Below, one piece after another: positions 25,367-39,044 of a stretch of DNA of 64,000 nt. Numbering within the stretch: position 1 is the first letter of the stretch; each line of letters begins with the position of its first letter. The DNA is from a virus. The position numbers were made by a program, and so were the translations under genes. The stretch lies in the IMG/VR virus record IMGVR_UViG_3300045988_184134. One strand, given 5' to 3'. A model generated the notes under the pieces. It was not told the origin of the DNA. It searched no databases and saw only the letters and a program-made list of their open reading frames with translations.

Positions 25367-26257
25367 TTATACATGGTTCACCTCCAGGCATTCATTACAG
25401 ACAGTGCGGTAATAATCTGCCGTAGGCTGCTCGCCTTTAGGAAGCGGCATGATGGGCTTGACATGAAGGCTCACACCCTCCGTCGGTGAGCGGCCGCAGA
25501 GAGTGCAGCGGAACCCATCACGCTGCAGGACTGAGTGACGAAGCTCGGCAGATGCTGCTTTGCGAGCTGCTGCCCGTCTTTGCTTTTCTGCCTCATGTTC
25601 CTTTGCCAGCCTGACAAACTCCTTGGCCTCTGCCATAGAATATGTACGTGTCTCAGAGAGTGTCTTCCCTCTTGTGGGAGTATACTGCTTGACAGCATGG
25701 AAGACCGGCTGCGTGACAGGCGTGCCATATACCGCATCATTCACGAGTTTCTGTTCCCACTTGTGATAGAGGCAAAACGGCACTCGGCGGCCACAATCGT
25801 CATCTTTCTCCGTCCAGTTGGGCAGGTCTTCGAGTTCTTTTTTGTACATTCCAAACTGGACGTTGTTGCTATTGGCCCAACCGAAGACCTCTTCAAACGC
25901 ATCAATTTTCTTCTGGACGGTGCTCATAAAGAGCCGGTCAAAAGAAGCGTTTTCATAGTCTTCCTTCGTATCTTGAGGATACTCCAGCGTGATTTCCGCA
26001 TCGACATCATAGAACTCATAGCCTTGATTGATTTCTCGTAGCCCATCGAGGATGTTACTCGTCTGTTCTACATTCTTCTTGGCATGACGTGTGACCAGAA
26101 ACCAGATGAGCCCGATAATTCCCAGCAAGCCTGCTGCCACCAGCACAATATCCAAGGGCGTTATCATTGCCATTTGGTCCTCAATCCAGAACGAAAACTC
26201 GTCCGGCATGTCAATCAGCCAATCACCAAAGTCAATTGGCTTACCGTAGTTGTACAT
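25367..26257 (-). CDS. membrane protein with C-terminal degenerate HNH-like zinc finger
   Basis: TM helix near the N-terminus. C-terminal FRCTLCGRS…LHVKPIMP…TVCNECLEVNH resembles HNH, with the D-H pair replaced by K-P. Confidence 0.45.
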   Translation of the reverse strand: MYNYGKPIDFGDWLIDMPDEFSFWIEDQMAMITPLDIVLVAAGLLGIIGLIWFLVTRHAKKNVEQTSNILDGLREINQGYEFYDVDAEITLEYPQDTKEDYENASFDRLFMSTVQKKIDAFEEVFGWANSNNVQFGMYKKELEDLPNWTEKDDDCGRRVPFCLYHKWEQKLVNDAVYGTPVTQPVFHAVKQYTPTRGKTLSETRTYSMAEAKEFVRLAKEHEAEKQRRAAARKAASAELRHSVLQRDGFRCTLCGRSPTEGVSLHVKPIMPLPKGEQPTADYYRTVCNECLEVNHV

Positions 26258-26359
26258 GTTTCACCTCTTTCAGTTCAAGCCATTTTCATCATACTTGTCG
26301 CTCTTGCCAAGATTACAGATGCTGCAAAGAGTCCGCAGGTTGAATAGCCTGAAAGTCCT

Positions 26360-26785
26360 TTATGCAAATATAGATAGAATTCGATATACGATGCCGACTG
26401 CAACAAGCATAAGCACCGGAATCCAGCTACCGAATGTCATGGGCTGGTCTTCCCTGCAGCAAAATGCTCTTTTTGGGTTCCCGCTCGGAAAATAGAACAT
26501 CCTTGGCTCCGGGTAGTCATTCTGTTGGCGGCGCTTTGTATATATCCTGCCTTCAAACTCAAATTGATATGTGACGGAATAGTTGTGGCTCTTATAGGCA
26601 GGTTCATTGGAGTTATACGGCTTGTCTTGGATTTTGACAGGCGTTGCCATAGCGCAGTAGCCTTTGTCTTTTGCCGAATGTATTTTCTCTTCATAGGTTT
26701 TAAACCAACGAGGGTGGGTAGCAACCGGAATACCAATACAGATGATGACGATAAATGTTGAGATTGCGAATAAAGCGATATTCAT
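26360..26785 (-). CDS. two-TM membrane protein (DUF3592-like topology)
   Basis: N- and C-terminal hydrophobic helices flank a beta-rich middle. Confidence 0.45.
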   Translation of the reverse strand: MNIALFAISTFIVIICIGIPVATHPRWFKTYEEKIHSAKDKGYCAMATPVKIQDKPYNSNEPAYKSHNYSVTYQFEFEGRIYTKRRQQNDYPEPRMFYFPSGNPKRAFCCREDQPMTFGSWIPVLMLVAVGIVYRILSIFA

Positions 26786-28056
26786 TGCCAGTCTCTCCCA
26801 TAAACTCTGATATCAGGAGGATATTCGGTAAGCGTTTTGTATTCTTCTTCGCTCGCATCTACCCGTCCCCAAATGAATTTACCGTCAGCCAAAATATAGA
26901 CTTGAGCAATAGTAAGGTCAGAAATGAGCTCCGCCTGTTTCTTGGTAAGATGGCATACTTTTGCCACCTCTGGAACTAGATGGCTCCAAATGTGGTGATA
27001 TACCTGAACATCGGCATCAAGCATAATTTCGTGAAGAAACGCAAGGTCTTCGTCATAGTTAAAGACGCTGGTTGCGGAAATTACTGTGCAGTTGTTCAGC
27101 ATTGCGTTCTGGCAAATATATTTACTCCAGCCCAGCGTGGTGTCTTGCTCCAGCATATAAGGACCATACTTCATAACGTCTTGACTTTCGCCAAAAAACA
27201 CATCGCACAACAAGATGGCTTTTTTGTCTGCATCGTTTTGCATCCGTTCACTCAGGATTTCAAAACAGTAAGCCATCATAAATTCTTTGGCGCTGTTATC
27301 TTTGTTGATTTTGCCTTTATACTCCATAAAGTCCAAAACAAGGAATGGACTGTCCCAATCAATATCTGTCTTGTAGTTGAACCAGCCATAGGGACCGTCA
27401 ACGAAAAGCGAAAGCCGGTCAGCAAATTCTTCAAGCTCTTTCACTTTTGAAAGTTTAATGGTCATGTACAGGTCTTTGATGGTAGGAAACTCTTTGTACT
27501 GGTTTGTCCCTTCTACAAACAGGCTCGCGTTGTCAAGCGTAATGCCTTTCTTTTTGTAAACCTCATGCAGCATCATGTCCAAAAGAGCAGTTTGCTTTGG
27601 TATAATGCCGGGCATCAGAGTCTTAAACACAGCCAGCAATTCACGAATTTTTCTCTCCAGCACAGAACCTTTACATCTATCCTCGTTTGGTTTACGTATA
27701 TCGAACAAATTGATGTGAGCGTTTTCGCCAAGGAAAACGGTTTTACCGCCCAACAGGTCGCACATATATCCATATTTCTGTCGGCTCAACCCGCTCACAA
27801 GAACTGTTGCCTGCGCCCCTTCTTTGCAAAGCCGATAGAGAATAAGCTTGCTGGTGAAATTCTTGCCTGTACCGTGGCTCCCCACGATAGAAATGACCGA
27901 GCTCCTGTGCTTAGAAGAATCTGTCATATTGAAGGACAGTTCTCCTATTTCCGGCTCAAACCACCAGCGATTGGCAATGCAAATGCCACCATCTTCGTGA
28001 ATAACGTCTGGTTCAGGCGCTTTGACCGGCTCCTTTTTCTTAAAAAATGGAAACAT
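26782..28056 (-). CDS. P-loop NTPase (HerA/FtsK/VirB4-like ATPase domain)
   Basis: Walker A SIVGSHGTGKNFTSK; Walker-B-like ILLCDVFFGES. Confidence 0.5.
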   Translation of the reverse strand: MFPFFKKKEPVKAPEPDVIHEDGGICIANRWWFEPEIGELSFNMTDSSKHRSSVISIVGSHGTGKNFTSKLILYRLCKEGAQATVLVSGLSRQKYGYMCDLLGGKTVFLGENAHINLFDIRKPNEDRCKGSVLERKIRELLAVFKTLMPGIIPKQTALLDMMLHEVYKKKGITLDNASLFVEGTNQYKEFPTIKDLYMTIKLSKVKELEEFADRLSLFVDGPYGWFNYKTDIDWDSPFLVLDFMEYKGKINKDNSAKEFMMAYCFEILSERMQNDADKKAILLCDVFFGESQDVMKYGPYMLEQDTTLGWSKYICQNAMLNNCTVISATSVFNYDEDLAFLHEIMLDADVQVYHHIWSHLVPEVAKVCHLTKKQAELISDLTIAQVYILADGKFIWGRVDASEEEYKTLTEYPPDIRVYGRDWQ

Positions 28057-28094
28057 GTTCTTTTCCCTCCCAATGTGTATCGCTTTCTATTATC

Positions 28095-28130
28095 TGCAAT
28101 TCGCACAATTCATCAAATTTTCGCAGATAC
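28095..28130 (-). promoter_or_regulatory. promoter TTGATG-N17-ATAATA (spacer TGTGCGAATTG) for 26782..28056
   Basis: Sequence match; conventional terminator, then promoter order here. Confidence 0.45.
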
Positions 28131-28131
28131 G

Positions 28132-28165
28132 AAAAAAGCAGCCACCTCCCGAAGGAAGCGGCTGC
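28132..28165 (-). terminator. intrinsic terminator of 28182..29066
   Basis: GCAGCCGCTTCCTTCGGGAGGTGGCTGC plus U6 on the minus strand. Confidence 0.6.
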
Positions 28166-28181
28166 ATATCACTAATCCGAA

Positions 28182-29066
28182 TTAGAACTTGAAGAATCGA
28201 GGCACAATACCATCTTTGTCCATGTCCAGAATCATGGCAGCGAAAGTATCCATCTGAATCGGCACAAACTCAGCCGTATAGCTGAGCGAGCCGCCGGACT
28301 CCTCCGCAATGTCGAGCATCGTCTTGAGGAATGCTGTAAAATCCTGAATCTCGTTAGGCTTGAGGGTGACGCTCGTGCAGATGGAAAGGCAACTCTCATC
28401 CACGTCTGCCACATCGCCTTCCTTGCGGCCAAAGACGCTCCAGACAGACTGAACTGCAGCCAGCATCTTATCGACCTGCTGAACGGTGAAGGTATCTCCC
28501 GCTTCCAGCTCCATCTCGAAGGTGTAGCAGAACCAGAAAGGAATATCCTTTACCGCTTCTTCCGACACATAATCGGGACTGTCGCACAGCGTCTTGCCAT
28601 CAAATGTCAGCATCGACACATGGCTGTCCACGTCGTAGTATTCAAGGCCCTGATACCGAACAGATTCAGCCCCGCAATCCTGCAAAATATCGCTCCAGAA
28701 TGCAGAGCCGTAGAAGATGCTGTGGCTGAAGTAGTGAATCATGCCGTAAGACAGAAACGCTTCAACGTCCACATCTTCGAGGATACGCGAAACGGCATCC
28801 TCCACTTCCGGCGTGCTCTGCCAGCTGGTATCGAGACCATCAAGCCCCTTCCCGCCGGTCTTGTTGTGAATGTCCAGAGCAGTTTTCCCGTCAAGTTTGA
28901 TGACCATTGCGCTAAGACTCATGGACTCGATGCTGGCGGTATCGAGGAACTGGCGCAAATACCGCGCCAAATCTTTACGTACCTGCTCGGCACCCTTCTC
29001 ACCTTTCCCGATAATGATGCGCTCAATAGCGACCAATTCAGTGCTCATAGTATCTCCTTTACTCAA
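28182..29066 (-). CDS. hypothetical protein (294 aa)
   Basis: Intact ORF with an intrinsic terminator at 28132..28165 downstream. Confidence 0.5.
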   Translation of the reverse strand: MSKGDTMSTELVAIERIIIGKGEKGAEQVRKDLARYLRQFLDTASIESMSLSAMVIKLDGKTALDIHNKTGGKGLDGLDTSWQSTPEVEDAVSRILEDVDVEAFLSYGMIHYFSHSIFYGSAFWSDILQDCGAESVRYQGLEYYDVDSHVSMLTFDGKTLCDSPDYVSEEAVKDIPFWFCYTFEMELEAGDTFTVQQVDKMLAAVQSVWSVFGRKEGDVADVDESCLSICTSVTLKPNEIQDFTAFLKTMLDIAEESGGSLSYTAEFVPIQMDTFAAMILDMDKDGIVPRFFKF

Positions 29067-29233
29067 TATGGACAGGCAGCTTGATTTCTGTCTCGCTCTG
29101 TTTCAGAGGCGGCAAATCCTGTACGTACTCAGCAATCTTCTCAGCCAGTTCGGCAGCGCTCAGCATTTTGATTTCCGGCGGAACAATGCAGCGGTCATCA
29201 ACGACATAGTTCTTAGTGCCCATAGGCATTCAC

Positions 29234-29734
29234 TCACAGTGCAGCCAGATAGTGAATCGCCATCTTTGCAAACCCGATAGCAGATACAAGGCACCATCCT
29301 GCTTTTCCAGCCCAGATAACCTTTGTATAGATGGGTAATACCTTTCGGACCGGCTCCAATTTCCCGAATGCAAGAGGAATTGCAGATACCATCAGCAGCG
29401 AAATATCAAACGCTAAACAAACAAATACAGTTAAACAGTAGTTCAGCATGAGTTGAGCTTCGACCTTATTGACTTCAATTAAGCGCAAAGCCAACAAAGC
29501 AAATGCCGTTGAAATCACACAGCTAATGACAAGGATTCGTACCGTATGGTTCAGAGTATCCTCGGGTGATAGGTATTTTCTTTTGCCGCAGCAATAGGTT
29601 ACTTCTTGGAAGGCTTTACGCCCAAAATACAAGTTATAAACACCACTTGCGGCAAAAAGGATAGCAGTCACAAAGAACAGCGCCGCTCTGCAAATATCAA
29701 CGATACCCATAGGAATCAGAAGGAGAACTTGCAC
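29234..29734 (-). CDS. multi-pass membrane protein (166 aa)
   Basis: Four or five hydrophobic segments. Confidence 0.45.
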   Translation of the reverse strand: MQVLLLIPMGIVDICRAALFFVTAILFAASGVYNLYFGRKAFQEVTYCCGKRKYLSPEDTLNHTVRILVISCVISTAFALLALRLIEVNKVEAQLMLNYCLTVFVCLAFDISLLMVSAIPLAFGKLEPVRKVLPIYTKVIWAGKAGWCLVSAIGFAKMAIHYLAAL

Positions 29735-30603
29735 TCACGGCGCTCGCGGCCATTGCCGCACCAATAGTGCCGCCAGGTGGGAGCCTTACCGTTCGCTTCC
29801 TTCTTGTAACGCTCCATCAGATAATGGCCCACCACAAAGGTCTTGATATTGACTTTCTTGGTCTGGCCCTTGAACGTAAAGACAGGACGTTCGTCCTTTT
29901 TCGGGCTGTCCAGACGAATCTCCACGCCTTTGCTGGCAAGGTAGTAGGCACACAGCATTGCGAGACGGACATAGGGCGTGCCTTCGCCGTAAACAGACGG
30001 GATAGCGTCCAGCGTTTCAGGAATAGTGATGTCATCTTTATCGCGGGTCGAAGATGCCTTTTCGATGTACTGTTTCGTGCTGCGAGTCGCCTCCGTCAAG
30101 CTCTGACCCTCCTTAATCCAAGCGGGAAGGGACAGGAACGCGAAGTTCTCCTTCTCGTTCTGGACGGGGCCGACAAGGACGATGCCAACGAAGGTGTCAT
30201 CCGTCTTTGTATCGAACTCGATATGCACGAACATGCCGCAGTAGTCCACGCTGTTGTACAGAGGCACATAGAAGTTCTTGAACGGCAGGCGCTCCAGCAC
30301 CTCGCGATGGAGAGTGAGGTCATCGGTATCCATCAGCAGTTCCAGAAAATCCTTGCCGAAATCGTAGATGACCTTGGTCTTGTTCCAGTTGGCGATGGTG
30401 TAGCACGGGAAAATCTGGGCAGCCAGCACCTTTTCAAATCCAGGCTGCTGCATCTGCTGGGCAACACGCAGGCACTGAAGCGTAGCGCTCTTGGTGAATT
30501 CGTCCAGCGTCTTGCCGCAGGGGTCCTCAAAATCGAAGCCGGTACGGGTCGAGCGAGTAACGGCATTGGCGGTGAGTGCGATACGAACCTGTTCAGAAGT
30601 CAT
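29716..30603 (-). CDS. hypothetical protein (295 aa)
   Basis: GGAGGA RBS. Confidence 0.5.
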   Translation of the reverse strand: MTSEQVRIALTANAVTRSTRTGFDFEDPCGKTLDEFTKSATLQCLRVAQQMQQPGFEKVLAAQIFPCYTIANWNKTKVIYDFGKDFLELLMDTDDLTLHREVLERLPFKNFYVPLYNSVDYCGMFVHIEFDTKTDDTFVGIVLVGPVQNEKENFAFLSLPAWIKEGQSLTEATRSTKQYIEKASSTRDKDDITIPETLDAIPSVYGEGTPYVRLAMLCAYYLASKGVEIRLDSPKKDERPVFTFKGQTKKVNIKTFVVGHYLMERYKKEANGKAPTWRHYWCGNGRERRECKFSF

Positions 30604-30663
30604 AAATATCCTCCAAAATATGTTATTTGTTTTCGGTTTCCCGATGGTTTGTTAGAAAGCAAA

Positions 30664-30746
30664 GTTGTCTGCCAGCCGTAGCTGTTGCCCGCTGCCCGCC
30701 TCGTGGAGGCCTCTTTGCGTAAAGGCAGCTGCGGGGAGAACCCCGC
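30664..30746. other. conserved intergenic structured element, copy A
   Basis: GTTGCCCGCYGC…GCC(Y)CGTGGAGGC…GGCAGC plus terminal hairpin GCGGGGAGAACCCCGC; abuts the stop codon of 30747..31343; no U-run. Confidence 0.4.
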
Positions 30747-31343
30747 TCAAGATTTGATGTTTAGGCGTCTATTGATTTCTTTCACGCCGAGTTTCCGAGA
30801 TGTAAATACAGGCTTTACCTCTTGCCCGTGCTGTTTCACAAACCGTTCGAGCACTGTCCATGACGGCTCGCTTCCATCCTCAAAGGAATACGGGTCAAGG
30901 TTCAGAAAGAGCCAGGTCTTGGTGTGTTCCCTGCCGGCCAGATAGTGAATGAGTGATGCCGTAATGGCAAGAACCCCCTTATGCCATGTGTAGGTCATAG
31001 TTCGGCTCACATCATGGACAATAAGTTGGGGCTGCTTTCCCATCGCCATATCGACTTCGATGGTATGCGCCACAACGGGCTTATCGTCCGTAATCTTATA
31101 TTGATGCAGAATCATCGGAATGCGGCCCGGAACGATACGGTCATGGTCCAGTACAAAGTCCGCGTACTCCCCTGTCACATCAAAGACAATGATTCGGTCT
31201 GATATGGTACGCAGCGTCTTGGCAATCTGACGCTTACACCAGAACGTCTTCCCTACCCCTTCATTGGCAGATACGAGAGTATAGTAGCTGGTTTCAATGA
31301 TATTAGGTTCTATCCTTTTCATTCCTTGATGTACTCCTCGCAA
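30747..31343 (-). CDS. small P-loop NTPase (198 aa)
   Basis: Walker A SANEGVGKT; hhhhD Walker B IIVFDVTGE. Confidence 0.45.
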   Translation of the reverse strand: MRGVHQGMKRIEPNIIETSYYTLVSANEGVGKTFWCKRQIAKTLRTISDRIIVFDVTGEYADFVLDHDRIVPGRIPMILHQYKITDDKPVVAHTIEVDMAMGKQPQLIVHDVSRTMTYTWHKGVLAITASLIHYLAGREHTKTWLFLNLDPYSFEDGSEPSWTVLERFVKQHGQEVKPVFTSRKLGVKEINRRLNIKS

Positions 31344-31849
31344 AACTCCAGTTTGCGTTCTGCATAACTCTCATCACCCGTAACATTGACCAGAAATTCT
31401 TGCAATTCCGCTTCGAGCTTCTTCTCGGTCAGAGTGGCGAGCTTTTCGTTATACTCTTTCGGCGGCCAATCAATGGCGCAGAAAACCATCGTGTTGCCAT
31501 CGTAATCAAACGTACTGAAAAAGCTCCCGGAGGGATAGCCGTAACACTTTTCAAAAACGAGACACAGGGCGTTTGCATAGATGATATGGGCTTCTTCCTT
31601 CAAGCAGTCACTTCCGTAGTCCTTAGCCCGGTGCAGATTATACCAATCACCGGCTGCCGCAACGAATTTCATGCCCAGCGGCCAGGATTCATACCCTTCG
31701 AGGTCTTCGTTTTTGAAAGACGGCACTAAGGCAAGAACTTCTTCTTTAGTCGGAACATATCTCGCCAGAAAGTCCTCGTTGTAATGGACTTCCTCACCGT
31801 CTCCAAGGTTAATACCTTTCCCGGTGTTGTTTACGTGATACCACCCCAT
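31319..31849 (-). CDS. hypothetical protein (176 aa)
   Basis: Intact ORF. Confidence 0.45.
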   Translation of the reverse strand: MGWYHVNNTGKGINLGDGEEVHYNEDFLARYVPTKEEVLALVPSFKNEDLEGYESWPLGMKFVAAAGDWYNLHRAKDYGSDCLKEEAHIIYANALCLVFEKCYGYPSGSFFSTFDYDGNTMVFCAIDWPPKEYNEKLATLTEKKLEAELQEFLVNVTGDESYAERKLEFCEEYIKE

Positions 31850-32423
31850 TAGTTGTTTGCCCCTCCATTTGCATTTTGATTAGCAGAACTGCGCTTGTTG
31901 CAGACAGCAGTGAAAGAAATCCGCACAGAAACGATGCCCAAAAATTCTCGGCGTCGGAGCTGCTGTCTACGCTGATATAGTACGGATATGCGTTCATGTC
32001 TCCAATTGCTTCCTGATATTCCTCCAGGTGTTCTGCCGGTACAGCCAGGATATTGCCTTTAATAGGAGCATGGCTATAGATATAGGAGCCTTTTTCGCTA
32101 TCATCAAACTCGGCCGCGATGATATAATCATCACCACTTTTGGTGTATACCTTTATCGGGTAGAAGGCTGTTACGTAGTCGCCGGACGGCTCATCACTTG
32201 CGGCCTGATGCCGTTCCCACATGATGATGTTGGATACAATGTTATAGTCTTCCGAATCCAGCGCAATGGATTTTTTCTCATACTGCTCCAATTGAGAAGG
32301 CTCAACCGTAGCCAGGTTCGTTCTGATAACCTGCTGCATGTAGGAAATCGGTACGAATGCAAACAGTACCGCCATCACCAACATAAGAAGTATCTGCATA
32401 ATGGCTTTCGTTTTCTTTTTCAT
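31809..32423 (-). CDS. membrane/secreted protein
   Basis: MKKKTKAIMQILLMLVMAVLFAF signal anchor; C-terminal second hydrophobic helix. Confidence 0.4.
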   Translation of the reverse strand: MKKKTKAIMQILLMLVMAVLFAFVPISYMQQVIRTNLATVEPSQLEQYEKKSIALDSEDYNIVSNIIMWERHQAASDEPSGDYVTAFYPIKVYTKSGDDYIIAAEFDDSEKGSYIYSHAPIKGNILAVPAEHLEEYQEAIGDMNAYPYYISVDSSSDAENFWASFLCGFLSLLSATSAVLLIKMQMEGQTTNGVVSRKQHRERY

Positions 32424-32509
32424 AGTTATCTCCCGTGTGCTGCATACCAAGCATAGAAGCCATCGTATTGCTCCCGCCCTGGTCTGCCTTCGCTCAAACT
32501 CGCGGGTAT

Positions 32510-32773
32510 CTACAAATGACTATACCGTCCGGCGTGCAAGCCTCTACCACAGGCTTCTTTTTCGGCTTCTTTGAGTTTCTCAGGAAATTCCCGTTCTTCC
32601 TTCTCGTTTTCTCGGAAGGCTTCCGCAAACGCTTTGTACAAGTCGTAAGTATCTTTTTCAGGATTAAAAGGCACGGTCCTATAATACTCCGTTATGAACC
32701 ATTTTTTACCATCGATGCTTGTCAGATAAAATCTTGTATTTGGGATTGGGATACTTCCTATCATGTTACTCAC
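32510..32773 (-). CDS. hypothetical protein (about 88 aa)
   Basis: Trimmed to the internal Met so it does not overlap the upstream gene. Confidence 0.3.
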   Translation of the reverse strand: MSNMIGSIPIPNTRFYLTSIDGKKWFITEYYRTVPFNPEKDTYDLYKAFAEAFRENEKEEREFPEKLKEAEKEACGRGLHAGRYSHL

Positions 32774-33162
32774 CATCCTCCACGAGATAAGCGAACCCAC
32801 TCTGTCCTTGTCCCGCTGTAATACGGAGTATGAGTATACGCTTCGTAGGCCCATTTGCGCTCTTGCTCTTCCCTCAATGCTTGCTCCTCCTTCAGTTCCT
32901 TGACTGTGGCGATGAGCTTGTTTTCTTTGCCTTCCGCTTCACCTTTGGCAAAAGCGGCTTTTTGGGCTTCGTCAATACGCTGGTATCTGTTCTTTCGTTC
33001 TTTCTCGATATAGAGTAGTCCATTGGCTACTGCATCGAGAAATGCTTGTGTCTCAAAGGCAGAAATAGGTTCTTTTCCATCCTTATCTTTGGATACACAG
33101 AAAAAGCCGTTTTCGTCATAGCAGATGAAATAGGGAGAGTTTGGGACCTGTTGTGTTTTCAT
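32770..33162 (-). CDS. hypothetical protein (130 aa)
   Basis: Glu/Lys-rich; GGAGAAAGCC-ATG RBS. Confidence 0.45.
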   Translation of the reverse strand: MKTQQVPNSPYFICYDENGFFCVSKDKDGKEPISAFETQAFLDAVANGLLYIEKERKNRYQRIDEAQKAAFAKGEAEGKENKLIATVKELKEEQALREEQERKWAYEAYTHTPYYSGTRTEWVRLSRGGW

Positions 33163-33196
33163 GGCTTTCTCCCCTTCTTTTTCGTTCTGAAGACTA

Positions 33197-33293
33197 TTTG
33201 CCAGGAGCCTTTCCCGTTGCCCGCCGCTTGCCCCGTGGAGGCTGTCTTCGTTGAGCGGCAGCAGCCCTCAATGGGCTGCGTGATGAACCTCAA
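33197..33293. other. conserved intergenic structured element, copy B
   Basis: Same conserved blocks with covarying stems (CCGC/GCGG instead of GCTGCC/GGCAGC; terminal hairpin CAGCCCTCAATGGGCTG); abuts the stop of 33294..34688. Confidence 0.4.
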
Positions 33294-34978
33294 TTATTTG
33301 TTGGGGCCCGTCTTCTTTTTATACGGATTGGTTTTGTTGGTGGTAGCATGCTTCTCAGCTGCCTTGGCGTGAGCATCCATGATGGCCTTTTCCTCGTCCG
33401 TAAAATCGGGACGGAAAGAAGTTTTATCTTCGCCGGTGATAGGGTCTTTCTCATGGAACATCCAACCATCTTCGACACGCTCGGAGGTGATGTGAGATTT
33501 TGGCTCGTCCAACTCCACACCATCGATATGGATGTTGCGGTCCGTCTTAGCCTGGATGCTATTGGCACGAACAATCTCACCCATGTCGATACCGGTTGCC
33601 TCCTTCACCGTCTGCATGGTCTGGGCCATGAGCACCGGGACGTTACCAGACACACCGGATACGCCGGAAGCATCACCACCGATGATAGACACCTTGTCGA
33701 TGCTGGACAGGGGCTGGGCCACGCTCTTGGCGATGTCAGGCAGAACCTTGATAAGCATTTCGGCAACAGCTGCGTCGTTGTACTGTTTGTAGGCTTCGGC
33801 TTTCTGCTTCATAGCCTCTGCCTCAGCCAGACCTTTCTGGCGAATGGCTTCAGCCTCAGCCTTACCGACCATCTCGATGCCTTCTGCTTCCTGCTGCTTA
33901 GCGAACTTTTGCGCTTCGGCTGCACGCTCCGCCTCGTATTTTTTGGCTTCTGCTTCTTTCTGACGGCGATAAAGGTCTGCATCAGCCTGTTTACGGACTT
34001 CTGCGTCCAGTTTACGCTGCTGGACTTCGGCTTCCTGCGCAGCAAGGTCAACCATCTTCTTCTGCTTGGCAATCTCTGCGTCAGCCTCAGCTTCTTTGAT
34101 TTCCTTGGCACGGAGGTTCATCTGGATACGACCGGCAGCATCTGCGTCGGCCGCAGCCTTGTCAGCTTCTGCCTTCAGCTTTGCCTTGGCAAGCTGCAAC
34201 TCGTTGTTGCGCTGTGCGATAGCGGTCTGGGCTTCAACTTCCTTGGCGTTCGCTGCCATCTCAGCATCTGCTTTGGCACATGCCACATCGCGAGCAGCCT
34301 GGGCACGGGCAATCTCAGCCTGCTTCTTCACCAGTTCTTCCTGCTCGATACCGATAGCTTCGATGACACCGTGATTGTGGCCCTGTGCATCAATCGCGTC
34401 CCTAATGTCTTGAACATTGAAGGTCACGACCTCAAGGCCCATCTTGGCGAGGTCTGGACGAGCGTTCTCAATGACGCTCAGTGCCATCTGCTTGCGGTTT
34501 GTCAGAATCTGGTCAACGGTCATGTCGGAGACAATCTCACGCAGGTTGCCCTGCAGAACGTCATTGACCTTGTCGTTGATGCCCTGCTCGTTCATGCCAA
34601 GAAAGTTTGAGATAGCTGCCTGCTGGCGGGACATGATATACGCCTTGGCGTCCTTCAGACCAGATGCTTTGACCTCATCGTCCAGCACAGTGGAGTTCTC
34701 ACTGTAGACCTGAATCGTTACGACAGAATCAGCGACACGCCATTCTGAGTCTTAACGCCTGTTTCCGGGGTCTTGACATCAATCTTCAGAAGCCGCATGT
34801 TCAGTTTGTCTGCTCGTTGCAAGACAGGAAGCACAAACGTGCCTTTACCGGATACTACTTTTGGCTTTGACAACCCAAAGCCGGTCACGACGATAGCCTC
34901 CGTCGGAGGGGCCTTCTTGTAGCACAGAAAGCCGAAGATGATAATAAGGACTGCTACAATCCCGATGATAAGCGCCAT
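33294..34978 (-). pseudogene. flotillin/SPFH (YqiK/FloA-like) gene interrupted by a 1-nt frameshift near 34735
   Basis: N-terminal fragment 34718..34978 (TM helix plus …VVSGKGTFVLPVLQRADKLNMRLLKIDVKTPETGVKTQNGVS) and C-terminal ORF 33294..34688 (SPFH core …TFNVQDIRD… plus long Ala/Glu/Lys coiled coil) are in different frames. Reading across them, …NGVS|ADSVVTIQVYSENSTVLDDEVKAS… is continuous apart from one missing base. Confidence 0.65.
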
Positions 34979-35040
34979 ATTCATACTCCTTTCGCTCATC
35001 ACAACCAATGCCTGTCTTTTGTGCAGGCGCGAATACAAAC

Positions 35041-35073
35041 AAAAAAGCTGCGGAAGCAAAAGCAACCACAGCC
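35041..35073 (-). terminator. intrinsic terminator inside the flotillin leader, about 60 nt before its RBS
   Basis: Minus strand GGCTGTGGTTGCTTTTGCTTCCGCAGC plus UUUUUUG. Confidence 0.5.
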
Positions 35074-35220
35074 TTTTATATGAACCACCGGCCCAGGAAA
35101 AAGCCGATGGGGTGAATACAAGCGGAAAGCAAACATGTCAAAGTGAGAGGAAACCACGTCGTACACACCGGCAGGAAGAGGTTAAGACCCGCCGGAACCC
35201 AATTCCGCTTGTACAATTCT

Positions 35221-35260
35221 AATTCTACGCAATTCGCACAAATGCACAAGACATTATTTC
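35221..35260 (-). promoter_or_regulatory. promoter TTGTGC-N16-TAGAAT with TGTGCGAATTG spacer motif; heads the about 230-nt leader of the flotillin gene
   Basis: Sequence match; an upstream intrinsic terminator at 35271..35310 insulates it. Confidence 0.5.
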
Positions 35261-35474
35261 GATAAGCAAAAAGAATCCCCGCTGCTCTTTGCGGGGAAAG
35301 CAGCGGGGTCCGTAAGAAAGGATGTAAGGAACGAGGTGACTGCATGAAAGCAGATAGAACCGTCGGAGAGGGACGGCAAATGTTGTGAGAACTCAGGCAC
35401 TGTACCCTGCCCCGGTTTGCATGGCTGCCATCGACAGCACCGTCGGGTCTTTGTCCTTGCCCTCTATATTGTAT

Positions 35475-35492
35475 TATACCACATGTGGTATA
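35475..35492. promoter_or_regulatory. 18-bp perfect palindrome TATACCACATGTGGTATA (candidate operator)
   Basis: Exact inverted repeat in the non-coding region 35261..35640, next to a TGTATAAT -10-like sequence at 35541..35548. Confidence 0.4.
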
Positions 35493-35642
35493 CAAAATCA
35501 AGATGCAATCCGAAAATATGGCACATTTAGTGCTTTGTCTGTATAATGAGTTGAACTTTTTTGCCTCTGTTTGTGGAGCTCAATCCAAAAAGATAGCCGT
35601 TTTCCAACCTTTTGGGAAATGAGATACACTTTTAACTTTAAC

Positions 35643-36153
35643 TCATTCCTGAAGCAGAGTAATGATGACGGTTCTGGCATTGGAGTAGTCCGAGGCACAG
35701 GTCGTCAGTGCCAACACCTTATAAGCTCCAGCATCTTTTTTGTAGGCTGCGAGTACATCCTGATTTACGTTCTCTGCATTTTCTTCTACATGTCTCGGCA
35801 GCAAAGCCAAACGGTGCGTAGACGCTTTCCAGCTGTTCAGCCGTTAGATAGTAGCGTTCCCGGCCAGCCAGGTGTTCGGGTCCTTGCAGGTCTGTGGTAC
35901 TGCCCACCTTTGCCCAGTCACCATTGATGCAAGCAAAGAAACCGGCAGCCGAGCCGTCCTCGCTTTCAAGTTTGATGTCTGCTTCTTTGTCTTCTTCAAG
36001 GCTGCTTTGCATTGCTATTTCGGAGGTCGCAATTGATGTTGTATTCTGTCCCTTCTTATCATCTGCGTAAGCCGCCGGTATGAAAGGAGTAAACAACTGC
36101 GCGGCGAGCAAAATGGCAGCCGATAAGCTTGTGATTCTTTTTGCGTCTGTCAC
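35643..36153 (-). pseudogene. secreted protein with probable frameshift about 35825 (or assembly indel)
   Basis: GTG start with signal peptide TDAKRITSLSAAILLAAQLFTPFIPAAYA. After …YAPFGFAAET the annotated frame becomes Arg/Cys/Lys-rich junk, while an alternative frame reads protein-like (HVEENAENVNQDVLAAYKKDAGAYKVLALTTCASDYSNARTVIITLLQE-stop). Confidence 0.3.
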
Positions 36154-36380
36154 TGTATCACACCTTTGCTGATATTTTGCGAAAAAGTTATAATGTGACA
36201 ACCATTGCAATGGATATTGTTGCCAATTCGCACGTTTTGGCAACAAAAAGGCCCGACCGCTTTGGGTCGAGCTTAATGCTTCTTATTATATGTTGCTGGT
36301 TTTGCGTTTTCTTTTGGGACAGTGAAGTGTTTGCAAACAATTCATCACACACTGTCGAGATTTATTATGATATGGTATAA

Positions 36381-36389
36381 TGGGTATAG
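36381..36389 (+). promoter_or_regulatory. extended -10 (TGgTATAAT) for the GNAT-like gene
   Basis: Sequence match 23 nt upstream of the RBS. Confidence 0.35.
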
Positions 36390-36411
36390 AAAATGAGAGG
36401 AATGATGTGTA

Positions 36412-36825
36412 ATGCAAACCTCAATGCAGAGACTGTGTCTTTCAAACGAGCAGATTGAACGGCTTCAAGCTATCATAGAGTCAAAGCAAAACTGCAAGTG
36501 CCAGGCGGATGTATCGTTTGGCACTGTATGGATTACATCGGATGATGAACTCAATGAGCTGCGAGTCTCTTTTCTGGGTGATTTCGAGCTTGTCGTGTCC
36601 CGCGTTGGCTTTACTCATAAGCGTCGTGGTACGATGACTTCTGTTCTGGAAGAACTGAAGAAGATATGCACCGAGGTCGGCGTTCCCAGGATTGTGATAC
36701 AGTCTGTTCTGACACCTGAGATGCAGGCATTCTGCCAGGCGCATCATATTGAGCCTGACAAGAACACAACCATGCAGGTTGGTGATGTCTTGGTAGGCGA
36801 CTATTATCTTATGCTGGATACCTGA
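36412..36825 (+). CDS. GNAT-family acetyltransferase-like protein (plus strand)
   Basis: FTHKRRGTMTSVLEELKKICTEVG resembles GNAT motif A; extended -10 (TGgTATAAT) at 36381..36389. Confidence 0.45.
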   Translation: MQTSMQRLCLSNEQIERLQAIIESKQNCKCQADVSFGTVWITSDDELNELRVSFLGDFELVVSRVGFTHKRRGTMTSVLEELKKICTEVGVPRIVIQSVLTPEMQAFCQAHHIEPDKNTTMQVGDVLVGDYYLMLDT

Positions 36826-36831
36826 ACCTTT

Positions 36832-37221
36832 TCAGCATTCGAGAACTTCCGGGTCTCCATCGAAATTCTCTCCCCTGTCGAGGCGCTGCCCCACAGAGAA
36901 GTTGATGACAAGGGGGTCCTTGTCATATTCAGAATAGTCGAAGTCTTCCCTCTCACCGTCACTCAACGCTGGGTCATACTCAATTGTTGCGAGCCAAGCA
37001 TCGAACGGCATTTCATCATGGGTTGCGATGTATTTGGCGTACTGCCCAAACAGTTCGCAGCATCTGGGCCACGGCAGAGGATTGTCAAGATAAAACTCAA
37101 GCTGCCAGTCCTCATACGGAGTCAGGTCGTTCACGCCGTAACGCTGGAGCCCCTTGAGTGCTTCCTGGCCTTCCTTGCTGGTAAAGAGATAATCGTATCC
37201 GTTCATGTTCATTTCCGTCAT
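36832..37221 (-). CDS. hypothetical acidic protein (129 aa)
   Basis: Converges on the GNAT-like gene. Confidence 0.45.
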   Translation of the reverse strand: MTEMNMNGYDYLFTSKEGQEALKGLQRYGVNDLTPYEDWQLEFYLDNPLPWPRCCELFGQYAKYIATHDEMPFDAWLATIEYDPALSDGEREDFDYSEYDKDPLVINFSVGQRLDRGENFDGDPEVLEC

Positions 37222-37380
37222 CTTTTACAGGTCCTTTCTTTATTTGTGTTTCTTCCAAGTTCGTGGTGGTCGGCCGAGTCCCTGCCCCCTTTCTTTGTGG
37301 GGTCACTCTATAAAGAGATATTTTCTATAAAAATGTAAACCGCTATATACAAAAAGCCTCCAAAATTCTGGCGGCTGCTG

Positions 37381-37905
37381 TTATTTGTGATGGAGAGGTG
37401 CTGCTCCGAGTAATGCTGTCACATCAAACGACGATGCGTTATAGACTGTCAGCTGTTTCTCAAGCGCGTATTTCACAGTATAAGCTGTGCCGCCTGTCTG
37501 CTTCGTGCAGTAAGAAATGCAATAGTCTGAGCAATCGACCAGATGCCTGTCACGGGTCAAGTAAGCACTCTTGCTCGGCTCTTTACTGACATAGACGATT
37601 TTGTCCATCTTTTTGTCTAAGTTCTTAGCATGGAGCTGCTGTTCTGGAGTCCATCGGTCGCGGTAGCCTTCAAAAGGAAGCACCTCGATGATGCGCAGGC
37701 GGCCGTTTTCTTTCTTCAGCTCAATGAGCATCTCCGCTACGAGGGTATCGAATCCTAAAGCACCGCCTACTCCATAGTAGATAATTCCGCTCTGGATGAG
37801 TGGGATAAGCCGATGCCTTACTCTGGTTAGAATCTTTGTTTGCTCTCCCGGCGGGATGTTTCGATGCCCCGTAAAGCAGCATGTTTGCTTCTTAAATTTT
37901 CCCAT
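37381..37905 (-). CDS. SLOG-superfamily protein (DUF1273/YpsA-like)
   Basis: CCFTGHRN…GGALGFD pattern typical of YpsA/DprA-like SLOG Rossmann domains. Confidence 0.4.
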   Translation of the reverse strand: MGKFKKQTCCFTGHRNIPPGEQTKILTRVRHRLIPLIQSGIIYYGVGGALGFDTLVAEMLIELKKENGRLRIIEVLPFEGYRDRWTPEQQLHAKNLDKKMDKIVYVSKEPSKSAYLTRDRHLVDCSDYCISYCTKQTGGTAYTVKYALEKQLTVYNASSFDVTALLGAAPLHHK

Positions 37906-37975
37906 ACCGGCTCCTTTCTGTCAATTGGACAATTTATCATCTTTTGTCAATTCCGCTCACAAATAAAGTGACGAT

Positions 37976-38003
37976 ATTGACGAATTAGCGCAATTCCGTA
38001 TAA
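37976..38003 (+). promoter_or_regulatory. plus-strand promoter TTGACG-N16-TATAAT for the BlaI-like / XRE regulator pair
   Basis: Near-consensus hexamers; spacer contains CGAATTAGCGCAATTCCG. Confidence 0.5.
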
Positions 38004-38035
38004 TTGAAATCAGCATTACAGAATAACAATGAAAG

Positions 38036-38431
38036 TTGGTGTTTTCTATGGCAGCTTCCAGCCATGCGCCCCGTCCGTATCATCTGACTCCCGCAGAGGA
38101 AACCGTTATGAAAGCTTTCTGGAACAGCAAAAAGCCGCTGTGCCAGCAGGATATCCTTGACCATGTGAAAGAGAATGGTGACCTGTTCTGGAAAGAGCGT
38201 TCCATCTTCGCCATCATCAATTCTCTGATGAAGAAAGGCTGTATCAAGGAGGATGGGATGGTTCGCGCCGGTAAAACCTATGCCAGAACTTTTGCTCCCG
38301 CAATGAGCCGTGCAGAGTTCTATGCGGGCATGGTGACGAACGCGCTGACGAAGAAAGAGCTGGTCGAGTTCCGTCGCGCTATGCGTCAGTTAGCGAACGA
38401 AGATTCTGAATCTTCCGATGAGGAGGCTTGA
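38036..38431 (+). CDS. BlaI/MecI/CopY-family winged-helix transcriptional repressor
   Basis: LTPAEETVMKAFW…QQDILDHV…ERSIFAIINSLMKKGCIKEDGMVRAGKTYARTFAP matches the penicillinase-repressor family. Confidence 0.6.
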   Translation: MVFSMAASSHAPRPYHLTPAEETVMKAFWNSKKPLCQQDILDHVKENGDLFWKERSIFAIINSLMKKGCIKEDGMVRAGKTYARTFAPAMSRAEFYAGMVTNALTKKELVEFRRAMRQLANEDSESSDEEA

Positions 38432-38437
38432 CTTCAT

Positions 38438-38746
38438 TTGGAGGTGACTCTTATGCCGAATGCACGGATATTAGGTGCTTATATCAGGCAGAGGATGAAA
38501 GAGAAAAATCTTTCCGTAAGTGCTGTTGCCTCTATGCTTAGTTGTAGCGAGGTGGATGTGCAGAGGCTTTTATGTGGCCGGGCACTTGCTTCATACCCAC
38601 AGATGCAGCGCCTGGCGGAAGGCTTAGGTTTATCTGTGCCTGCACTGCTGCGGAATGCCTCCAGAATTGAGACAAACGCTTCCAGAGAAAAGATTCTTGA
38701 CATTATCTGGGACTACATGGATGTCCGAGATGCGGTACTATGTTGA
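38438..38746 (+). CDS. XRE-family HTH regulator
   Basis: LGAYIRQRMKEKNLSVSAVASMLSCSEVDVQRLLCG helix-turn-helix. Confidence 0.55.
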   Translation: MEVTLMPNARILGAYIRQRMKEKNLSVSAVASMLSCSEVDVQRLLCGRALASYPQMQRLAEGLGLSVPALLRNASRIETNASREKILDIIWDYMDVRDAVLC

Positions 38747-38768
38747 CTACACGCCACAGTGGTGGGCC

Positions 38769-39041: not shown

Positions 39042-39044
39042 GGA

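Follow-up and report, generated by a model that had tools for sequence, protein, structure and literature searches.

The window, the whole 64,000-nt stretch of viral DNA analysed here, carries a series of minus-strand genes interrupted by two related intergenic elements, site A and site B. On consensus matches to a promoter and to terminators, both elements appear to lie inside a single promoter-to-terminator unit running from ~35,215 to ~28,135. The unit and its surroundings comprise:

35277-35308, terminator closing the preceding unit, similar to the one closing the operon (terminator scan)
35212..35262, minus strand, promoter-like repeat upstream of the operon: TTGTGC, 16 nt containing TGCGAATTG, TAGAAT (repeat families D2-D4 and D6)
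33294..35065, minus strand, segment 1, flotillin/SPFH gene, frameshift-split in the window into two ORFs (34718-35065 and 33294-34688)
33163..33188, minus strand, 26-nt 5′ UTR after ribozyme B, Shine-Dalgarno GGGGAG at 33169-33174, 6 nt before the ATG at 33162
30747..33162, minus strand, segment 2, five ORFs between the ribozymes (32770-33162, 32510-32854, 31809-32450, 31319-31849 and 30747-31343)
30604..30658, minus strand, 55-nt 5′ UTR after ribozyme A, Shine-Dalgarno GGAGG at 30610-30614, before the ATG at 30603
28182..30603, minus strand, segment 3, three ORFs downstream of ribozyme A (29716-30603, 29234-29734 and 28182-29066)
28138..28165, minus strand, intrinsic terminator closing the operon, a 12-bp stem followed by UUUUUU

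We infer a transcription start near 35,215. The motif TGCGAAYTG occurs 13 times, as compared with 1.8 expected, and terminator and repeat scans between 35,212 and 28,165 identified no promoter repeat and no strong minus-strand terminator. The flotillin ORFs match Pfam Band_7 and Flot and NCBIfam FloT (9.3e-70 and 1.8e-10), and an intact flotillin homolog is present in contig L049. Searches of the flanking genes against Pfam, PHROGs and NCBIfam returned almost nothing besides this flotillin upstream of site B. In particular, the segment 2 ORFs have essentially no matches, the last of them (30747-31343) showing a weak P-loop similarity, and in segment 3 ORF 29716-30603 matches phrog_6160 (unknown function). 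Megablast of positions 24,000-40,000 against phage and plasmid collections gave no match.

A sequence-only reading of this DNA had reported two related intergenic copies, each following a stop codon and preceding the next gene. The two copies do lie between stop and start, but the genes concerned are on the minus strand, and the plus strand on which the elements had been read is the wrong one. The relationship of the copies was confirmed: the window contains exactly two instances of the 27-nt minus-strand core GCCTCCACGRGGC-RRGCRGC-GGGCAAC (30684-30710 and 33216-33242), as compared with 0 expected by chance, none of 100 dinucleotide shuffles contains a match, and pairwise alignment of site A with site B shows strong similarity over ~60 nt. 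Read on the plus strand, the elements fold no better than shuffles (z −0.6 and −0.8), as compared with −2.1 and −1.4 on the minus strand, which is the strand of all neighbouring genes. The ranges originally given, 30664-30746 and 33197-33293, leave out the P2 3′ arm of each copy and, at site B, extend 14 nt beyond the element. With these corrections, the elements comprise, at site A:

30659-30746, minus strand, site A element at its true limits, between the stop TGA 30747-30749 and the start ATG 30603-30601 of minus-strand genes
30731..30746, minus strand, leader hairpin P0 (GCGGGG-UUCU-CCCCGC), then an unpaired A (30730), then the predicted cleavage site
30659..30729, minus strand, predicted HDV-like ribozyme core (Rfam RF02682 and sequence), predicted cleavage 5′ of G30729
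30723-30729 (GCUGCCU) with 30691-30697 (GGGCAGC), minus strand, P1, 7 bp including one U-G
30713-30718 (GCAAAG) with 30659-30664 (CUUUGC), minus strand, P2
30698-30710, minus strand, P3/L3 (GCC-UCCACGA-GGC)
C30706 and C30705 with G30689 and G30690, minus strand, P1.1
30684-30690, minus strand, J1.1/4 (GGGCAAC)
30674-30683, minus strand, P4 (AGC-UACG-GCU)
30665-30673, minus strand, J4/2 (GGCAGACAA), GGC at 30671-30673, putative catalytic C at 30671

and at site B:

33189-33279, minus strand, site B element at its true limits, between the stop TAA 33294-33296 and the start ATG 33162-33160 of minus-strand genes
33261..33279, minus strand, leader hairpin P0 (GCAGCCC-AUUGA-GGGCUGC), then an unpaired U (33260), then the predicted cleavage site
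33189..33259, minus strand, predicted HDV-like ribozyme core (Rfam RF02682 and sequence), predicted cleavage 5′ of G33259
33254-33259 with 33223-33228, minus strand, P1 (GCCGCU/AGCGGC), 6 bp plus a C33253/A33229 mismatch
33244-33249 (GAAGAC) with 33189-33194 (GUCUUC), minus strand, P2
33230-33242, minus strand, P3/L3 (GCC-UCCACGG-GGC)
C33238 and C33237 with G33221 and G33222, minus strand, P1.1
33216-33222, minus strand, J1.1/4 (GGGCAAC)
33203-33215, minus strand, P4
33195-33202, minus strand, J4/2 (GGCAAAUA), GGC at 33200-33202, putative catalytic C at 33200

Both copies display the complete nested double-pseudoknot anatomy of the HDV ribozyme, with all elements in canonical order (P1, P1.1, P2, P3/L3, J1.1/4, P4 and J4/2). 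Specifically, P1 has 6-7 bp and begins with G1, the nucleotide 3′ of the predicted scissile phosphate; P2 crosses P1, with its 5′ arm just before P3 and its 3′ arm after J4/2; and P3, a GC-rich helix of 3 bp, closes an L3 within the 7-8-nt range, with U as its first nucleotide and the G needed for the U-G reverse wobble. P1.1, two pairs between the CC of L3 and the first two nucleotides after P1, creates the second pseudoknot, while J4/2 places a cytosine after P4 and GG, in the position of the catalytic C75 of HDV. Both copies are almost certainly HDV-like self-cleaving ribozymes, a known kind of RNA, and both are likely to be catalytically active. The structure first proposed had missed the P2 pseudoknot and the catalytic core, while several of its parts find a place in the fold: the shared blocks GTTGCCCGCYGC and CGTGGAGGC, reverse-complemented from the plus strand, give J1.1/4 with the P1 3′ arm and P3/L3, respectively, and the stems said to covary are real, helix P1 being GCTGCC/GGCAGC in one copy and GCCGCT/AGCGGC in the other. 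The block GGCAGC is only partly homologous between the copies, being the P1 5′ arm at site A and straddling the cleavage site at site B. Each copy has features that could slow catalysis: at site B, the C-A mismatch at the seventh P1 pair; at site A, a 2-nt P2-P3 spacer and a long (9-nt) J4/2.

In Rfam, both sites match RF02682 (HDV-F-prausnitzii) best, with alignments spanning the whole model (1-74). Site B scores 43.0 bits (E 4.6e-7 in the local scan and 1.3e-4 over the whole window) and site A 35.9 bits (E 2.2e-5 and 5.7e-3), and the HDV ribozyme itself, RF00094, comes second at site B with 24.9 bits, as compared with a gathering score of 50. Both copies stay below the RF02682 gathering score (44 bits); a scan of the whole window at gathering thresholds was empty, and the match surfaced only in Rfam E-value scans. 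A riboswitch, considered for the pseudoknot and a resemblance to c-di-GMP-II, was rejected: in the Rfam E-value scans no riboswitch family matched, while HDV-like models did. Because the curated threshold misses both copies, annotation pipelines would leave such sites as blank intergenic DNA.

We searched for further copies and built a covariance model, R1, which scores site B at 65.6 bits and site A at 54.7 bits, both copies being in its seed. Within the window, R1 (filters off), the degenerate core (3 mismatches), the two short blocks and a loose descriptor found the two sites and no others. A weak plus-strand candidate at ~62,141-62,190 (13.1 bits, E 0.03) has no convincing P2 or P4 and is probably a chance match. 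Beyond the window, the core pattern matched 59 viral contigs, 67 genome stretches, mostly Clostridia MAGs, and >120 further viral stretches; in all, pattern scans of gut viral contigs and Clostridia genomes yielded >120 distinct relatives. Several exceed the RF02682 gathering score (L136 68.6, L133 64.9, L003 60.6 and L061 58.8 bits), and the site B ortholog in L049, in which the P1 mismatch is repaired, scores 47.0 bits. Since that ortholog passes and many relatives score 44-69 bits, the window copies are near-threshold members of one sequence continuum.

The genomic settings of the relatives bear on whether these would be allosteric ribozymes, responding to a ligand or condition and regulating downstream genes as glmS does, rather than constitutive processing sites. 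Ribozymes of the site B type always precede one small gene (MK/RT/VQQVPNSPYF...), with either flotillin or a 569-aa protein upstream; such a constant link to one downstream gene would fit regulation, as would the location of the elements in 5′ UTRs and the proposal that the closest characterised relative, the F. prausnitzii ribozyme upstream of glmM, is metabolite-responsive (PMC6765202). The core, however, precedes at least 42 unrelated clusters of downstream genes and, in other cases, tRNAs directly, a spread at odds with a single dedicated ligand; apart from the minimal HDV fold and the leader hairpin, no further domain is conserved, and P4, the usual place of insertion, is short and variable. 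We therefore regard allosteric control as unlikely.

The below-threshold Rfam scores, the P1 mismatch at site B and the atypical J4/2 at site A would suit catalytically dead relics, or a structured RNA co-opted as a protective 5′ cap-like fold, a protein-binding site or a translation enhancer of the IRES-like kind suggested for the HDV-like ribozymes of the retrotransposons R2 and L1Tc (PMC6765202). Against this, the catalytic-core positions are intact in both copies (L3 U and G, P1.1 CC/GG, GGGCAAC and J4/2 GGC), and the site B ortholog with the repaired mismatch passes the threshold. Orthologs in related contigs, moreover, keep the helices by compensatory changes: the site A ortholog (L130 type), which lies between the same two genes, has P1 changed from GCUGCCU/GGGCAGC to ACUGUCU/GGACAGU. 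Such changes imply selection on the complete fold, and we consider loss or co-option quite unlikely.

A further feature shared by the two HDV-like ribozymes is the leader hairpin P0. The two terminal hairpins of the sequence-only reading exist, but they lie outside the ribozyme, on the 5′ side of the predicted cut, and P0 of site A begins immediately 3′ of the TGA stop. The 30-nt leaders fold with a minimum free energy of −14.8 kcal/mol at site B and −13.2 kcal/mol at site A. Among 78 unique 30-nt leaders of the family, 73 reach ≤ −10 kcal/mol as compared with 5 of 78 shuffled ones (mean folding energy −15.1 versus −5.3 kcal/mol), 0-2 nt lie between hairpin and cut in 70 of the 78, and nucleotide −1 is never G. 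With its 6-7 GC-rich base pairs and its place immediately behind a stop codon, P0 resembles a transcription terminator or attenuator, which would make the conserved sequence after it incidental. As the earlier reading had noted, however, neither hairpin has a U-run: A or U and then the P1 strand (GCUGCC/GCCGCU) come next. The terminator scan calls the true terminators at 35277-35308 and 28138-28165 and neither P0, and a covarying double pseudoknot lies 3′ of the hairpin, so that a terminator role is very improbable.

P1, P2, P4 and P1.1 all covary in the family. In an alignment of 58 sequences, 98.2% of cells pair, as compared with 33-52% when partners are slid by 1-3 columns, and two-sided changes occur at 7/7 P1 pairs and 4/4 P4 pairs; P2 was left out of this counting, as the MAFFT alignment lost register of its 3′ arm. 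The covariation score of 0.586 (0.208 in shuffles) was reached by none of 500 shuffles. In P1.1, C-G becomes U-A in the three AGGCAAC sequences, in which L3 reads CU (3/58, with no exception in the alignment). A perfect 7-bp P1, the arm of which was unspecified in the search pattern, is present in 115 of 141 unique cores, and in 116 of 124 sequences a fully paired P2 immediately follows GGCNNN; such perfect pairing in the parsed sets is partly a selection effect, by which the covariation, slid and swapped controls are unaffected. A first comparison of own with swapped P2 arms was uninformative, many relatives having similar A/U-rich arms, and was replaced by one on distinct arm pairs: among 60 of these, swapped arms are fully complementary in just 5.4% of cases. 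The J4/2 GGC lies outside the search pattern, yet it is invariant in 58/58 aligned sequences and present in 116 parsed ones, whereas the invariance of L3 and J1.1/4 among relatives is largely imposed by the pattern, that of P3/L3 being uninformative.

Approximately 30 cells of the alignment are G-U pairs, which would be A-C mismatches on the plus strand; since the neighbouring genes are, in addition, all on the minus strand, the element is a minus-strand RNA. The small structured RNA with covarying stems that had been among the original candidates is borne out. A DNA-level element, be it the partition or regulator site originally listed beside it or a REP-like dispersed repeat, could explain the similarity of two intergenic copies on a mobile element and is extremely improbable, as the window holds only two copies in a single orientation relative to transcription, pairing potential rather than sequence is conserved, the G-U pairs exist on one strand only, the fold is a pseudoknot, and the covariance-model match to a ribozyme family is specific.

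Among known systems, the F. prausnitzii ribozyme RF02682 is the closest, as the best full-model match at both sites, with the same helix order, L3 and J4/2 motifs and host range (gut Clostridia). The window copies differ from it in having GGGCAAC and L3 UCC, as in HDV proper, instead of AGGCAAC and L3 UCU, and in residing in an operon of unknown-function genes on a phage-like element instead of upstream of glmM. With the genomic and antigenomic HDV ribozymes (RF00094), they share the nested double pseudoknot, predicted cleavage at the 5′ edge of P1, a J1.1/4 of GGGCAAC (identical to genomic HDV), an L3 that starts with UCC and carries CG, and the J4/2 cytosine after GG. Unlike HDV, they have a much shorter P4, a 7-nt L3 and, at the base of P1, a G1-C pair, as in the RF02682 consensus, in place of the G1-U wobble, and they are DNA-encoded in a bacterial or phage operon, not in a rolling-circle RNA replicon. 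Co-transcriptional folding of the HDV ribozyme is rescued by a stable upstream hairpin, and P0 may be the analogue of the upstream P(−1) hairpin of HDV (PMC6097654).

Theta ribozymes are minimal HDV-like ribozymes of gut phages, with predicted hosts that are ~90% Bacteroidota, without P4 and with a cleavage site within 5 nt of a tRNA 3′ end (PMC10879173). The window elements resemble them in the HDV-like fold, the gut phage contigs and a putative RNA-processing role, and some of their relatives are located in phage tRNA arrays. In these relatives, however, the ribozyme 3′ end abuts the tRNA 5′ end, and a hairpin, not a tRNA, precedes the cut. Theta membership of the window copies was rejected: both have P4, and ARAGORN finds no tRNA in the whole window. 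For hammerhead and twister, it has been suggested that the ribozymes process bacterial polycistrons (PMC6765202). In Clostridium cellulolyticum, the transcript of the cip-cel operon is cut between genes, and stem-loops at the resulting 3′ ends determine the relative stability of the segments and the transcript ratios (PMC4423207); there cellular RNases make the cuts, whereas the window RNA would cleave itself at one defined phosphodiester bond, a single nucleotide past the stem-loop.

The explanation as a whole, that hairpin-plus-HDV-like-ribozyme modules of the RF02682 type split the operon transcript, is in our judgement very likely. During transcription of the operon, each ribozyme would fold into the nested double pseudoknot (P1, P1.1, P2, P3 and P4), and the J4/2 cytosine (C30671 at site A and C33200 at site B), with bound Mg2+, would promote attack of the 2′-OH of nucleotide −1 on the phosphate 5′ of G1 (G30729 and G33259). 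The upstream product would terminate one nucleotide past the P0 hairpin, in a 2′,3′-cyclic phosphate, and the downstream product would have its 5′-OH buried in the folded ribozyme, which leads into a short 5′ UTR with its Shine-Dalgarno sequence and then the next gene. Because both modules lie inside one promoter-to-terminator unit, a ~7.1-kb primary transcript would yield three RNAs: the flotillin gene (RNA 1, ~1.96 kb), the five small ORFs (RNA 2, 2.53 kb) and the three ORFs of segment 3 (RNA 3, ~2.6 kb), with P0-B, P0-A and the terminator as their respective 3′ hairpins.

We infer, with moderate confidence, that the role of the modules is segmentation of the operon transcript with differential stabilisation, whereby stability and translation of the three RNAs would be uncoupled. 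Of the functions initially suggested, a processing site or a 3′-UTR stabiliser, the evidence favours an RNA processing site, although of a self-processing kind. In Firmicutes, RNase J1 reportedly degrades the 5′-OH product that glmS cleavage leaves (Collins et al., 2007); cleavage could thus down-regulate rather than stabilise the downstream genes.

The unit 'stable hairpin, 0-2 nt, HDV-like ribozyme' might, tentatively, be a cassette for RNA punctuation in general use among gut Clostridia and their phages. We did not find such a cassette described in the literature covered, which excludes the primary F. prausnitzii ribozyme papers, where the hairpin may appear; the roles of bacterial and phage self-cleaving ribozymes besides glmS have been described as largely elusive (PMC6765202). 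If this is true, polycistrons would be cut at defined points, upstream products ending in a protective stem-loop and downstream products starting with a folded ribozyme, in three settings: between protein genes, as in the window; as the 5′ leader of tRNAs in phage tRNA arrays, where 4 kb can contain as many as six; and, on bacterial chromosomes, separating a surface-protein gene from genes for polysaccharide synthesis. The cassette would then be a natural counterpart of synthetic ribozyme insulators. The present locus is a clean case, with one candidate promoter, one terminator and two hairpin-led ribozymes, and predicts three discrete RNAs with defined ends. The family-wide position of the hairpin, 0-2 nt before the cut, points to two alternative roles, insulation of ribozyme folding or protection of the new 3′ end. 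In the RF02682-type relatives L133 and L136 (65-69 bits), the leader hairpin also abuts the cut.

On its minus strand the window carries two intergenic elements, site A and site B, each composed of a leader hairpin (P0) and a downstream element that belongs, by its sequence, with the HDV-like ribozymes of Rfam family RF02682. At the gathering threshold, Rfam had no match anywhere in the window. In E-value scans of both intergenic regions, RF02682 ('HDV ribozyme from F. prausnitzii', gathering score 44) matched full length at site B (33188–33259, minus; 43.0 bits, E 4.6e-7) and at site A (30659–30729, minus; 35.9 bits, E 2.2e-5), with the HDV ribozyme model RF00094 second at site B (24.9 bits). 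An E-value scan of the whole window returned the two sites as its sole meaningful matches (E 1.3e-4 for B and 5.7e-3 for A). Re-scanning 13 relatives at the gathering threshold gave 15 RF02682 matches at 44–69 bits, including the site B ortholog of viral contig L049 (47.0 bits), in which the seventh P1 pair is restored, indicating that the window copies are near-threshold members of a known family.

A sequence-only reading had proposed that the two elements are related, which the core motif bears out. Specifically, the degenerate core GCCTCCACGRGGC-RRGCRGC-GGGCAAC occurs on the minus strand at 30684–30710 and 33216–33242, at no other place in the 64 kb and in none of 100 dinucleotide-preserving shuffles of the window, and pairwise alignment of the two sites shows ~60 highly identical nucleotides. 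The individual 9-mers of the core occur at chance frequency in the window, so the signal lies in their combination. The surrounding ORFs are all on the minus strand, and relative to shuffles only RNA of this strand shows a gain in folding (z −2.1 and −1.4 for the two sites, against −0.6 and −0.8 for the plus strand), indicating that the conserved blocks of the sequence-only reading are reverse complements of the functional strand. About 30 G-U cells in a 58-sequence family alignment also fix the strand as minus.

The nested double pseudoknot is complete in both copies, its elements following the canonical order, with cleavage predicted 5′ of G30729 (site A) and G33259 (site B), each designated G1. 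The elements, as read from the sequence, are as follows:

30731–30746, minus: site A P0, GCGGGG-UUCU-CCCCGC, directly after a TGA stop and followed by one A and then G1
30723–30729 with 30691–30697, minus: site A P1, GCUGCCU with GGGCAGC
30713–30718 with 30659–30664, minus: site A P2, GCAAAG with CUUUGC
30698–30710, minus: site A P3/L3, GCC-UCCACGA-GGC
Within L3 and J1.1/4, minus: site A P1.1, CC of L3 with GG of J1.1/4
30684–30690, minus: site A J1.1/4, GGGCAAC, identical to that of genomic HDV
30674–30683, minus: site A P4, AGC-UACG-GCU
30671, minus: putative catalytic C of site A, in J4/2 GGCAGACAA
33261–33279, minus: site B P0, GCAGCCC-AUUGA-GGGCUGC, followed by one U and then G1
33254–33259 with 33223–33228, minus: site B P1, GCCGCU/AGCGGC, plus a C-A mismatch
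33244–33249 with 33189–33194, minus: site B P2, GAAGAC/GUCUUC
33230–33242, minus: site B P3/L3
33216–33222, minus: site B J1.1/4, GGGCAAC
33203–33215, minus: site B P4
33200, minus: putative catalytic C of site B, in J4/2 GGCAAAUA

A weak third HDV-like candidate lies at 62,141–62,190 on the plus strand, antisense within ORF 61559–63283. It has six of seven P1 pairs, an L3 UCUACGC paired with AGGCAAA, and no convincing P2 or P4 (13.1 bits with our own model, E 0.03), and is probably a chance occurrence.

A search for further copies and a covariance model, both suggested by the sequence-only reading, yielded relatives in IMG/VR contigs and Clostridia MAGs. The core pattern, in which the P1 arm was given as N, and L3 and J1.1/4 were fixed and owe their invariance in the relatives to this, matched 59 IMG/VR contigs and 67 genome stretches, mostly from Ruminococcus, Oscillospiraceae, Acutalibacteraceae, Lachnospiraceae and other Clostridia MAGs; about 10 further matches in other phyla lack P1 and are due to chance. 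A relaxed pattern gave more than 120 further viral stretches among the matches listed. A perfect 7-bp P1 stands at the expected place in 115 of 141 unique cores (chance, a few percent per sequence), and P2 is fully paired directly after the GGCNNN J4/2 in 116 of 124, perfect pairing in the parsed sets being partly a selection effect. Neither caveat touches the covariation or the slid and swapped controls. In the 58-sequence alignment, 98.2% of cells pair, compared with 33–52% when the partners are slid by 1–3 columns, and both sides have changed at all seven P1 and all four P4 pairs, confirming the covarying stems noted from the sequence (covariation score 0.586 versus 0.208 in shuffles, equalled by none of 500). 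P1.1 is U-A instead of C-G in three sequences, which are also the only ones with AGGCAAC. P2, scored separately because MAFFT did not keep it in register, is represented by 60 distinct complementary arm pairs with at least four pair types at each position, and full complementarity falls to 5.4% of cases once arms are swapped.

The 'terminal hairpin' of the sequence-only reading exists, but it is P0 and sits outside the ribozyme, 5′ of the predicted cut. A hairpin abutting the cut is a rule of the family: it ends 0–2 nt before the predicted cut in 70 of 78 unique 30-nt leaders. Seventy-three of these leaders fold at −10 kcal/mol or better (shuffled, 5 of 78), with a mean of −15.1 versus −5.3 kcal/mol for shuffled leaders. 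The stretch of 25 nt that follows the ribozyme has a mean of just −1.3 kcal/mol. The nucleotide at −1 is A or U, C twice and never G. P0 as a terminator is ruled out, since no U-run follows it at either site and the terminator scan calls neither hairpin. The earlier interpretation holds in part: it was right about a small structured RNA and about the lack of a simple terminator, and wrong about the strand of the conserved blocks and the place of the hairpin. Plausible roles for P0, which are not exclusive, are folding insulation and 3′-end protection. The HDV ribozyme can be locked into the inactive Alt1 fold by sequence upstream of it, and this is avoided when a stable hairpin lies upstream (PMC6097654). 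In the cip-cel operon of Clostridium cellulolyticum, transcript ratios are set by selective RNA processing and stabilisation, a model for P0 shielding the new 3′ end from 3′-exonucleases (PMC4423207).

Terminator and repeat analyses delimit the unit that contains both modules:

35277–35308, minus: strong terminator, preceding the promoter-like repeat
35212–35262, minus: promoter-like repeat containing TGCGAATTG (repeat analysis)
28138–28165, minus: next strong terminator (terminator scan)
28089–28116, minus: promoter repeat after that terminator

The interval between the 35212–35262 repeat and the 28138–28165 terminator lacks promoter repeats and strong minus-strand terminators. The gene order is a flotillin/SPFH gene, module B, five ORFs with no assigned function, module A and three ORFs. 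A transcript of ~7.1 kb would self-cleave into RNAs of ~1.96, 2.53 and 2.6 kb, ending in P0-B, P0-A and the terminator hairpin, respectively, and the second and third RNAs would open with the folded ribozyme, after which comes a UTR of 26 or 55 nt bearing a Shine-Dalgarno sequence. From the established HDV-like mechanism, we infer that at both sites the J4/2 cytosine and Mg2+ would catalyse 2′-O-transesterification at the phosphate 5′ of G1, so that the upstream RNA, capped by its hairpin, would end in a 2′,3′-cyclic phosphate and the downstream RNA would begin with a 5′-OH. Cleavage may either stabilise or destabilise the downstream segment. In Bacillus, RNase J1 degrades the 5′-OH product of glmS cleavage.

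The flotillin/SPFH gene is split by a frameshift near 34,690–34,720 (ORFs 34718–35065 and 33294–34688, minus), and is intact in L049 as a single ORF of ~614 aa; the split reflects either pseudogene formation or a mistake in assembly.

The promoter-like repeat consists of TTG(C/A)nC, a spacer with an invariant TGCGAAYTG, and TAnAAT. The TGCGAAYTG repeat heads most transcription units and occurs 13 times in the window versus 1.8 expected, and, from the conservation of its spacer, may be served by a sigma factor or regulator dedicated to the element:

427–435, 976–984, 3475–3483, 12615–12623, 17931–17939, 18441–18449, minus: promoter repeat
23461–23469, 28097–28105, 35230–35238, 36224–36232, 37051–37059, 54093–54101, minus: promoter repeat
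50700–50708, plus: promoter repeat, single copy

A 56-nt repeat (GGAAG..GCGAAATTGTGAATACGAAGGGC..) lies just upstream of promoter repeats at 3388–3443, 56610–56665 and 61396–61451, and one copy overlaps a sub-threshold Rfam 'sok' match (61344–61511, minus; 22 bits versus a gathering score of 59).

Both modules recur in two viral contigs, L056 (84 kb) and L049 (100 kb), at roughly the window's spacing (2,532 and 2,537 nt). Site-B-type copies always precede the same small gene (MK/RT/VQQVPNSPYF...) and follow flotillin or an unrelated 569-aa protein. The site A ortholog (L130 type) is flanked by the same two genes and carries compensatory P1 changes, from GCUGCCU/GGGCAGC to ACUGUCU/GGACAGU. Of 191 family copies, 146 follow a co-oriented stop codon at a distance of 17–82 nt and 152 have a co-oriented start within 300 nt. 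Clostridia MAG copies (L060–L126) are flanked on one side by a gene for a large secreted or surface protein (one protein cluster, 43 members) and on the other by genes for a glycosyltransferase, flippase or acetyltransferase, which suggests processing of cell-envelope polysaccharide operons. In tRNA arrays of viral contigs, our own covariance model finds up to six copies per 4 kb:

L141 1278–5092, L218 4601–8413, L144 120–445: ribozymes in phage tRNA arrays, IMG/VR contigs
L183, L207, L162, L150, L163: ribozymes in phage tRNA arrays, IMG/VR contigs

In these units the ribozyme 3′ end is 3–5 nt from the tRNA 5′ end, as in L141 (hairpin-ribozyme unit 1609–1711, tRNA-Met from 1716), and the ribozyme would form a 5′ leader removable by RNase P. 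The downstream partners are highly diverse, which makes a dedicated ligand unlikely; a generic RNA-cutting role fits better. A tmRNA (tag DNNRYASPIAA) also lies within two of the arrays (L150 7021–7420 and L162 1410–1809).

By sequence the window elements group with RF02682-type ribozymes, and they would work like them; the sole characterised example of the type is located 5′ of the F. prausnitzii glmM gene (PMC6765202). Theta ribozymes lack P4 and cut at tRNA 3′ ends (PMC10879173), on the opposite tRNA side from the tRNA-array relatives, whose unit precedes the tRNA 5′ end. A theta identity is rejected, as P4 is present in both window copies and no tRNA gene was found in the whole window. Features that may be new are the systematic pairing of hairpin and ribozyme, the clean operon with two ribozymes and, in relatives, the placement of the ribozyme as a tRNA leader; the leader hairpin is not claimed as undescribed, the F. 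prausnitzii primary literature lying outside our comparison. Ordinary by class, the elements offer a well-defined natural system for the role of bacterial and phage self-cleaving ribozymes.

The window probably comes from a large phage, or a mobile element resembling a phage, whose host is among the gut Clostridia; this host fits the strong Shine-Dalgarno motifs and the taxonomic placement of relatives in chromosomes. Megablast with 24,000–40,000 of the window gave no close DNA match in phage and plasmid collections, and the closest contigs are IMG/VR viral contigs of 84–100 kb. PHROG matches include a tail-protein-related family, a RecE-like exonuclease, a nucleotidyltransferase and phosphoesterases, and further protein matches are a UvrD-like helicase, a Y-family polymerase and a DUF3854 protein. 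Minus-strand genes at 12915–13922, 46454–47296 and 47293–48081 encode the nucleotidyltransferase (phrog_388) and two metallophosphoesterases, of which one also matches, in part, a PHROG family of RNA ligases. Ribozyme-bearing phages are reported to be enriched in tRNA nucleotidyltransferase and an RNA ligase (PMC10879173), and, speculatively, enzymes of the nucleotidyltransferase and phosphoesterase types could heal ribozyme-made RNA ends. A tandem duplication with a 177-nt unit (70% identity) lies at 9147–9500, within ORF 8883–9683.
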